Notes under the pieces: generated by a model | Told to the model about the DNA's origin: nothing | Seen by the model: the letters and a program-made list of their open reading frames with translations, nothing else | The model's database searches: none | Position numbers and translations under genes: made by a program | NCBI GenBank assembly: GCA_964016885.1 | Contig: OZ024741.1 | Location: 413,912,001-413,976,000, forward strand | Direction of reading: 5' to 3' | Origin: Eledone cirrhosa | Taxonomy: Eukaryota | Length of the DNA stretch: 64,000 bases | Part shown: piece by piece, positions 61,202 through 62,814 of the stretch | Numbering within the stretch: the first letter of the stretch is position 1 | How the letters are laid out: each line of letters opens with the position of its first letter

Positions 61202-61278
61202 ATATACATATATACATACATATATATATATATTTTAAGAGAGTAAAACAAAAAAGCCTTCAATACATCAAAAGTCTT

Positions 61279-61326
61279 TATTAGCCGACAATGTTTCATC
61301 CTATTAAGGACTCATCAGGGCAATTA
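61279..61326 (-). ncRNA. Minimal hammerhead (family I), inverted arm
   Basis: GCC-CTGATGA-GTCCT-TAAT-AGGAT-GAAA-CATTG-TC-GGC. Confidence 0.85.
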
Positions 61327-62195
61327 AAACAACAAGAAGTAATATCGGCAGATACAAGCCGGAAGCTCCGAAGAATATGGAGTGTACATACACTAAAGTA
61401 TTGCAAAAATGTATAATAAAAATAAAAATAATAAAAATATATAATAAAAATTACTAAGGATGTATATAACATTAAGAACCATATTACAAATATAGTCCAA
61501 AGCAAAAAAACCTAGAGCTAAACAAAGGTGGTTATATATAGCAGGAATTATATATAATACAATGTAATATAATATAATATAATATAATATAATATACCTA
61601 TCCTATTATATATCCTATTATCTATCCTATTATATCGTATTATATAGTATATAACTGTATTATTTATTATTTATTATATGTGCTACTTATAATTATATCA
61701 TATTATTACCTCATGTATATTGGGTAGATGTATTAGTAATATTATTATTATTATTTTCATTCCTATCATGCTTATTTTTATATTCAAACTCTTAATAAGG
61801 TTTAATTTGTGCAGTTGAAGATGGATGTGTGTATTGTTGTATGTGTATGTGTGTGTACGTGTGCGCACATATATACATATGCATATTGTACCTTTTGATT
61901 TTTATTGTAATTTTAATGTTGGTAAAGGTATATTATAGTATATTATATTATATTACATTGTATTATATATAATTCCTGCTATATATAACCACCTTTGTTT
62001 AGCTCTAGGTTTTTTTGCTTTGGACTATATTTGTAATATGGTTCTTAATGTTATATACATCCTTAGTAATTTTTATTATATATTTTTATTATTTTTATTT
62101 TTATTATACATTTTTGCAATACTTTAGTGTATGTACACTCCATATTCTTCGGAGCTTCCGGCTTGTATCTGCCGATATTACTTCTTGTTGTTTTA

Positions 62196-62240
62196 ATTGC
62201 CCTGATGAGTCCTTAATAGGACGAAACATTGTCGGCTAAT
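62196..62240 (+). ncRNA. Minimal type I hammerhead (family I)
   Basis: GCC-CTGATGA-GTCCT-TAAT-AGGAC-GAAA-CATTG-TC-GGC; canonical core, GUC site. Confidence 0.9.
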
Positions 62241-62814
62241 AAAGACTTTTGATGTATTGAAGGCTTTTTTGTTTTACTCTCTTAATTTTTCGGCTCTGTT
62301 TAACTACATTGAGCTATACCTTTTACTGTCATTTCTATAATACGAAGAGGGTGTTTAACTCCAACACACTCCACAATTTTAACCCTTATATATATATATA
62401 TACATATATACATATATATACATATATATATATACATATATACATACATATATACATACATATATCTATACACATATATTATATATATACATATATATAT
62501 ATACATATAAATATATATACGTATATATATATATGGACATATATATACATATACATATACATATATATATACGTATATATATATATGGACATATATATAC
62601 ATATACATATACATATATATATACGTATATATATATATGGACATATATATACATATACATATACATATATATACATATATATATATATATACATATATAT
62701 ACATATATATATATATACATATATATATACATATATATATATATACATATATATATACATATATATATATATACATATATATATACATATATATATATAT
62801 ACATATATATATAT

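Follow-up and report, generated by a model that had tools for sequence, protein, structure and literature searches.

In the window analysed here, a 64,000-nt stretch of the Eledone cirrhosa genome, the segment 61235-62387 carries two copies of one sequence in opposite orientations, embedded in a (TA)n-type microsatellite (Table 1). The arms at 61235-61591 and 61929-62285 are identical at 355 of 357 nt, and the left arm reaches 61599, for a length of 365 nt, when one extra TAATA unit is allowed. Comparison with sister copies from the same genome revealed that the sense part is the last ~750-770 nt of a 4743-nt family and falls wholly within its ~2-kb 3′ UTR. The inverted arm maps antisense to about positions 4641 to 4304-4307 of this unit, as defined on the real copy L032. 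The filler between the two parts meets the arm through a 2-3-nt overlap and is private to this copy. No ORF of at least 100 aa lies inside the segment, except for frames entering the flanking TA repeat. Substitution identity of the sense part to sister copies is 96.4-99.1% (18 of 18 compared), and the copy is therefore young.

The layout given in the initial annotation, with a 365-bp inverted arm, hammerheads and a one-sided tail running into (TA)n, was confirmed by the arm alignment, by a match to Rfam RF00163 and by a tail of 101-102 nt. Its reading of the central part as a non-coding spacer replacing an ORF was not. The sense part takes in both this "spacer" and the right arm, and since the "spacer" maps collinearly to the unit of a different, autonomous family, it is ordinary 3′ UTR lying beyond the reach of the shorter inverted arm.

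Table 1. Features of the locus at 61235-62387 (window coordinates).
Feature	Position	Strand	Basis or remark
(TA)n-type target microsatellite, left part	61201..61234	.	Sequence; target-site duplication unreadable within (TA)n
Inverted 5′-truncated copy of the element 3′ end	61235..61599	-	Outer end = terminus A
Hammerhead of the inverted arm	61280..61324	-	Mirror of 62196-62240; private C>U at 61298
Junction filler	61600..61616	+	Slipped copies of the sense part's first bases; sequence comparison
Sense 5′-truncated copy	61617..62387	+	Collinear BLASTN match to L032, unit 3995-4743
Canonical minimal type I hammerhead	62196..62240	+	Rfam RF00163, 31.7 bits, E 2.6e-6
One-sided tail, 101-102 nt	62287..62387	+	From terminus A (62286) to terminus B (62387)
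Hairpin motif GCTC-stem-TT-GAGC	62293..62314	+	Starts 6 nt 3′ of terminus A
(TA)n-type target microsatellite, right part	62388..62816	.	Sequence

The hammerhead of the sense arm has an intact core (CUGAUGA and GAAA) and a GUC triplet, with cleavage predicted after 62233 from the motif and from a covariance-model match whose score falls just below the RF00163 gathering score of 34. This match was recovered by an Rfam scan of 268 nt; when the whole window was scanned at E ≤ 1, microRNA models on TA repeats dominated and no hammerhead was present among the matches listed (150 of 283). The C>U change of the inverted-arm hammerhead leaves stem II with a G-U in place of its core-proximal G-C pair. 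It was found in one of the 61 hammerhead copies read, the common form being present in 49, and the changed form folds at -9.1 kcal/mol, compared with -10.6 kcal/mol. Minimum-energy folding of the 50-nt hammerhead region kept stems I and II and lacked the catalytic three-way form (z -2.1), so that folding alone is uninformative on hammerhead activity. An origin of the element ends by hammerhead cutting was rejected, the termini lying 53 and 154 nt downstream of the cleavage site. As neither terminus coincides with this site, the hammerheads are probably carried along passively with the 3′ UTR.

The parent family and its clade

A search of the genome with the last 258 nt of the element returned 2327 candidates, and the 40 that were scored are 98-100% identical to this query over its full length. 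A hammerhead 36-mer has 1033 exact genome matches (518 + 515), against 0 for its reversed control. Around hammerhead matches, 35 sister loci were fetched at 10 kb, and 22 of these run from the same 3′ end into an RT/EN ORF inside the insertion (L044, which reaches the last ORF codons only, was left out of this count). Open frames of 896-970 aa were found at five sister loci. The real copy L032 sets the 4743-nt unit, with a first methionine at 75, an ORF end near 2765 and then ~2 kb of AT-rich 3′ UTR. The parent ORF, of ~895 aa, encodes an RT followed by a GIY-YIG domain. The family is an abundant, autonomous and recently active Penelope-like element (PLE), accompanied by several hundred dead truncated copies.

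The best database relatives of the parent ORF are 35-45% identical over their best stretch and bear uninformative names, 118 of the 120 homologues listed being unnamed and two called "hypothetical protein". None of the hammerheads listed in file S2 of PMC8557442 matches that of the parent family, which may therefore be unnamed; Hydra-1_oBim is among those with a different hammerhead sequence, and the parent is therefore not the Hydra-1_oBim family. The parent ORF is also ~190 aa longer than most of its database relatives (~700 aa). The extra length consists of N/S-rich stretches between the RT core and the linker (~aa 480-720 in the L031-L051 ORFs), which resemble the asparagine-rich inserts reported for Adineta PLEs (PMC3846280).

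The initial annotation had assigned the locus to the Naiad type. Craig et al. (2021, PMC8557442) describe Naiads as having an N-terminal endonuclease, a CxC domain and DKA, without canonical hammerheads. In the same source, Hydra-clade elements are given a C-terminal endonuclease, RWK, DKT, a CxCX5C linker in place of CX2-5CxxC, CxxC and CxH motifs, canonical hammerheads and (TA)n targets, and are described as lacking GxKF/Y. In the parent open frames, YRDD was found at aa 361-435 in four of five (it was unmatched in L048), and a GIY-YIG-like motif was called at aa 766-840 in all five, hence C-terminal, after the RT. All five frames also carry DKT (PADKTKNL), the CxCX5C linker (CNCRVSANC) and CxxC (CNLC), and none carries CX2-5CxxC or GxKF/Y. 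CxH (CPH) is present in four, L032 being frameshifted there, and RWR, not RWK, in four. A canonical hammerhead is present, and the termini enter (TA)n in the loci inspected. The 4743-nt length of the unit, owing to its ~2-kb 3′ UTR, exceeds the <3 kb usual for Hydra elements, which is a tendency and not a criterion. A Pfam scan of the four PLE-like ORFs of the window gave no informative family. Motif matching thus points to a Hydra-clade PLE, and the C-terminal endonuclease, DKT and canonical hammerhead, set against DKA and the lack of canonical hammerheads in Naiads, led us to abandon the Naiad assignment. The endonuclease is likewise C-terminal in the window ORF at 47973-50465.

This ORF belongs to an element at 47024-52261, with which the locus had been equated in the initial annotation (at 47031-52261), as the same structure with its ORF replaced. 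The layouts are alike, but BLASTN detected only A/T-rich low-complexity matches and one shared 12-mer (E 0.74) lying on opposite strands of the two elements. Kinship at the DNA level was rejected, and the equation fell with it. The 47973-50465 ORF has the same domain order as the parent ORF, with RWR, CxCX5C, CxxC, CxH and HPDKT, and is about 46% identical to it at the protein level; the 47-kb element is therefore a separate family of the same kind. With its Hydra-clade motifs and a frame of 830 aa, it is a full-length PLE and does not belong to the Naiads. Its inverted arm, which contains a small insertion, runs to about 47922, and its tail is about 163 nt long. Its hammerheads (52010-52045 and 47112-47077) read CCGAAGA instead of CUGANGA in both arms, from which they may be inactive.

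The window contains further elements with inverted parts. A third PLE ORF, in two frames, lies on the minus strand at 16113-18629, with YRDD, CxCX5C, CxxC and CxH, and with a candidate hammerhead core near 18661. In the stretches 22214-22984 and 22978-23961, perfect inverted arms of 305 bp, which carry hammerhead-like cores at 22724 (+) and 22474 (-), adjoin a GIY-YIG fragment whose linker is of the CX2-5CxxC (Neptune-like) type. Short fold-backs of another family, with hammerhead-like cores, lie in TA repeats at 9099-9304, 24153-24187 and 32490-32696. Elements encoding an AP-endonuclease and an RT, which we take to be RTE-like, occupy 146-5965, 19089-25686 and 27955-40276 and also form long inverted pairs. 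The arms 27955-30983 and 37172-40202 are about 100% identical and may represent a large inverted duplication or an assembly feature. Several kilobases are duplicated between 7894-13300 and 31286-37100, at a spacing of about 23.4-23.8 kb.

Termini, census of sister loci and origin of the copy

Across sister copies, two ends are fixed, 101 nt apart and each followed by (TA)n: A, at unit position 4642 (62286 in the present copy), and B, at unit position 4743 (62387). A/T microhomology blurs them by 1-3 nt, and in the 47-kb element site A is blurred by as much as 6 nt. Their use was examined in a sample of 60 loci on contig C1. Among the first 100 hammerhead matches in order of position, the sample takes in all 15 inverted pairs, 2 direct pairs and the first 43 single matches; it covers about 60 of several hundred insertions, so that a small non-autonomous subfamily elsewhere could have escaped it. 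This sample requires an exact hammerhead 36-mer and covers copies with an intact hammerhead. Two arms were found at 35 loci and one arm at 25, a two-armed share that is inflated, as all inverted pairs but only the first 43 singles were taken. One A was paired with one B at 31 of the 31 two-armed loci with both ends in view, one end lying outside the fetched stretch at the other four of the 35. By our arithmetic, independent choice at even odds would give this result with a probability of about 5e-10. The inverted arm carries B at 21 of these loci and A at 10, and one-armed copies end at A in 18 cases and at B in 7. Among B-anchored inverted arms, 4 of 22 stop at 4639-4641, which is site A. In an older subfamily (L087, L088, L092, L095, L098, L107, L118 and L119; 74-86% BLAST identity to L032), the 3′ UTR carries duplications or insertions around unit 3644-3818, and the A and B termini are unchanged.

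The inner junctions vary from copy to copy. The 36-mer spanning the junction of 61235-62387 has a single exact match in 2,996 Mb, the junction is spanned by one of the 40 scored candidates, and it occurs in none of the 60 loci of contig C1. Copies without any ORF part account for 21 of the 35 two-armed loci, with spans of 183-3062 nt (a few of which include later insertions), and are common because the 3′ UTR is long. Loci that resemble one another upstream of a break owe the resemblance to older-subfamily indels, the inverted arm itself or other repeats. Apparent shared 5′ breakpoints at unit 3794/3818 and 4444 were discarded, the upstream DNA identifying them as alignment breaks at indels or low-complexity sequence. 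Miniature families suggested by like hammerhead spacings (327/330; 888/938/1035) were also rejected, their junctions being different. The copy at 61235-62387 is one point on a truncation continuum and not a non-autonomous element in its own right. Of the "miniature ORF-less" element initially annotated, the lack of an ORF stands, but the status of miniature element does not, given the genome-unique junction and this continuum.

The hairpin motif downstream of A has a counterpart downstream of B. The pattern GCTC-(5-26 nt)-TT-(G/C)AGC has only two matches in the 4743-nt unit, at 4649 and 7, each of them 6 nt beyond a terminus, A for the former and B for the latter. Shuffled units gave 0.072 matches per unit, a figure that overstates the surprise, as the pattern was written after the sites had been seen. 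The second copy, 6 nt 3′ of B, was found in parent tandem junctions and is absent from the truncated 61235-62387 copy. In these tandems, B abuts unit position 1 directly, and the template would therefore be a read-through RNA. In the 47-kb element, the motif is found at 52101, just past the arm end, and at 47943, just past a short direct copy of the 3′ terminus. The other matches in the window, three on the plus strand and one on the minus strand, fall within unrelated RT ORFs. The four hairpin sites do not share the same inner stem, but all of them are able to pair. Folding of the A hairpin agrees with prediction (z -2.6); the putative B hairpin, which did not come out intact when wider junction windows of either family were folded to minimum energy, is supported by sequence and position.

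We consider it very probable that 61235-62387 is a single 5′-truncated and 5′-inverted 3′-end copy of an autonomous PLE with Hydra motifs, likely built from cDNA started at both ends of a cut TA repeat. The parent endonuclease would cut both strands of (TA)n, and cDNA synthesis on a read-through (tandem) RNA would then be primed by one DNA end at site B and by the second at site A, in either case about 6 nt 5′ of a hairpin. The two cDNAs would stop early, at about 770 and 365 nt, and their free ends would be joined via microhomology and slippage, repair then completing the insert. The outcome would be head-to-head arms with a tail on one side only. Because the copy has neither the hairpin behind site B nor an upstream unit, it is probably unable to move again.

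These priming steps are modelled by analogy on the Poseidon protein, from another clade with a 30-40-nt tail and an AC-rich stem-loop. This PLE protein cleaves AT-rich DNA on both strands and extends them, is a predicted dimer, and starts reverse transcription at two internal positions of the RNA, which mark the limits of the tail, hammerhead cleavage being unneeded (Frangieh et al. 2024, PMC11167929). Whether Hydra-clade PLEs in general integrate through an RT-endonuclease dimer seated on two matching hairpins of one RNA, with cDNAs starting 6-7 nt upstream of each at both (TA)n ends, is a question on which we are evenly divided. If true, such paired priming would account for the one-A-one-B rule in 31 of 31 loci and for the arms that stop at the other start site (4 of 22). 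It would also set the tail length as the spacing of the hairpins, 101 nt here and about 163 nt in the 47-kb family.

A different course would be a single TPRT from site B, followed by self-priming, possibly on antisense RNA, in which the cDNA end folds back or changes template, the endonuclease resolving the second end at A. Arkhipova et al. attribute inverted junctions of Penelope to self-priming on an antisense template (PMC3846280), the tail has been ascribed to endonuclease resolution (PMC8557442), the junctions at L125, L086 and L085 are near-symmetric or overlapping, and that of 61235-62387 is slipped. We nevertheless find this course unlikely. In the present copy, 309 nt of the sense part are unmirrored in the arm, and at L049, L064, L073 and L079 the inverted arm greatly exceeds the sense arm in length. 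A and B are found on either arm (21 B-left, 10 A-left), each also serves as a sole end (18 A, 7 B), and the same hairpin lies downstream of both sites, as two equivalent start sites predict. With arm lengths independent and A and B interchangeable, single priming and fold-back fit less well than two-ended priming.

The remaining explanations treat the copy as an element of another kind. A dedicated non-autonomous miniature PLE, with a 1.15-kb unit transcribed and mobilised by an autonomous partner, would agree with the frequency of ORF-less two-armed copies (21 of 35), with the putative non-autonomous PLEs of Chlamys (PMC8557442) and with the reported ability of pLTRs to work in cis on unrelated DNA (PMC3846280). 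For 61235-62387 it is largely refuted by a junction unique in the genome, and we hold it to be very improbable; the look-alikes L066, L067 and L070, which are close to it in size, differ in their junctions, two of them with the tail on the other arm, sizes are continuous and the hairpin behind site B is missing. Replication as a non-LTR retrozyme, a hammerhead-bearing monomer copied via circular RNA, is suggested by the canonical type I hammerhead and by the argument that animal retrozymes stem from PLE pLTRs (bioRxiv 10.64898/2026.07.22.740005), but it is extremely improbable here. Short head-to-tail unit arrays occur in none of the 97 loci mapped (35 + 2 + 60), tandems are seen only of the 4.74-kb unit or its truncations, and the two hammerheads lie on opposite strands, so that no transcript would be cut twice into a monomer. 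The long, near-perfect inverted arms and the TA target also recall a MITE, or foldback DNA transposon with terminal inverted repeats, a reading to which we assign next to no probability. Identical symmetric terminal repeats in all copies, the finding that would have favoured it, were not observed: 31 of 31 loci have asymmetric A/B ends, the arms differ in length from locus to locus, and the DNA belongs to the 3′ UTR of an RT-encoding element. A MITE is excluded by these asymmetric ends and varying arms. The collection of copies, with outer ends fixed and asymmetric and inversion points variable, together with the mapping to the parent 3′ UTR, bears out the proposal of the initial annotation that the locus is a product of retrotransposition.

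Comparison with known systems

The locus itself is ordinary, as its architecture is already in print for PLEs, including the Hydra clade (Penelope-13_HM, file S1, PMC8557442). In annotation, fold-backs of this type belong with PLE ends and not with MITEs or new mini-elements, and the family is more useful than the single copy at 61235-62387. The origin of the head-to-head arms and one-sided tail of PLEs is presented as still open in PMC8557442, and the only in vitro PLE system found in the literature is that of PMC11167929. In this context, the family makes sharp predictions, with two start sites placed to the exact base, each backed by a hairpin, and invariable use of one of each. Should they hold, the cis signal that directs reverse transcription of PLEs in this clade would be identified, and two-ended integration would be directly testable. 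Neither paired priming nor the hairpin rule was found in print in the literature searched, and no title among the literature matches listed since 2021 concerned a PLE start-site hairpin. The same literature yielded no paper that treats non-autonomous Penelope elements together with MITEs, and the papers listed on twin priming and inversion mention Penelope a single time each.

Like Hydra-clade elements, the parent has an RT followed by GIY-YIG, DKT, CxCX5C and CxxC/CxH around conserved E and N, no GxKF/Y, a type I hammerhead near its 3′ end, (TA)n targets and an inverted truncated copy on the 5′ side. It differs in its 4.74-kb unit with a ~2-kb 3′ UTR, the listed Hydra families measuring 1.1-3.0 kb, in RWR for RWK, and in an ORF of ~895 aa where most database relatives have ~700 aa. 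With Naiads, it shares the (TA)n bias and tandem and inverted insertions with a tail (PMC8557442), whereas its C-terminal endonuclease, DKT and canonical hammerhead contrast with their N-terminal endonuclease, CxC domain, DKA and lack of a canonical hammerhead.

Insertions of EN+ PLEs are described as having an inverted pLTR and a one-sided tail of 30-40 bp (PMC8557442, PMC3846280, PMC8969392). The present family shares the 5′ truncation, the inverted truncated copy at the 5′ end and the single-ended tail, but this tail measures 101 nt here and about 163 nt in the 47-kb element, and here it lies clear of the first methionine of the ORF. Compared with Poseidon_Ac from the green anole, studied in vitro, the family is alike in its two putative internal RT start sites, which bound the tail, in an AT-rich target that would be cut and extended on both strands, and in ends that differ from the hammerhead cut. 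The two belong to different clades, and the start sites of Poseidon_Ac lie inside the ORF, with an AC-rich stem-loop, whereas those proposed for the parent family precede the ORF start, and GCTC-stem-TT-SAGC follows each of them at a distance of 6-7 nt.
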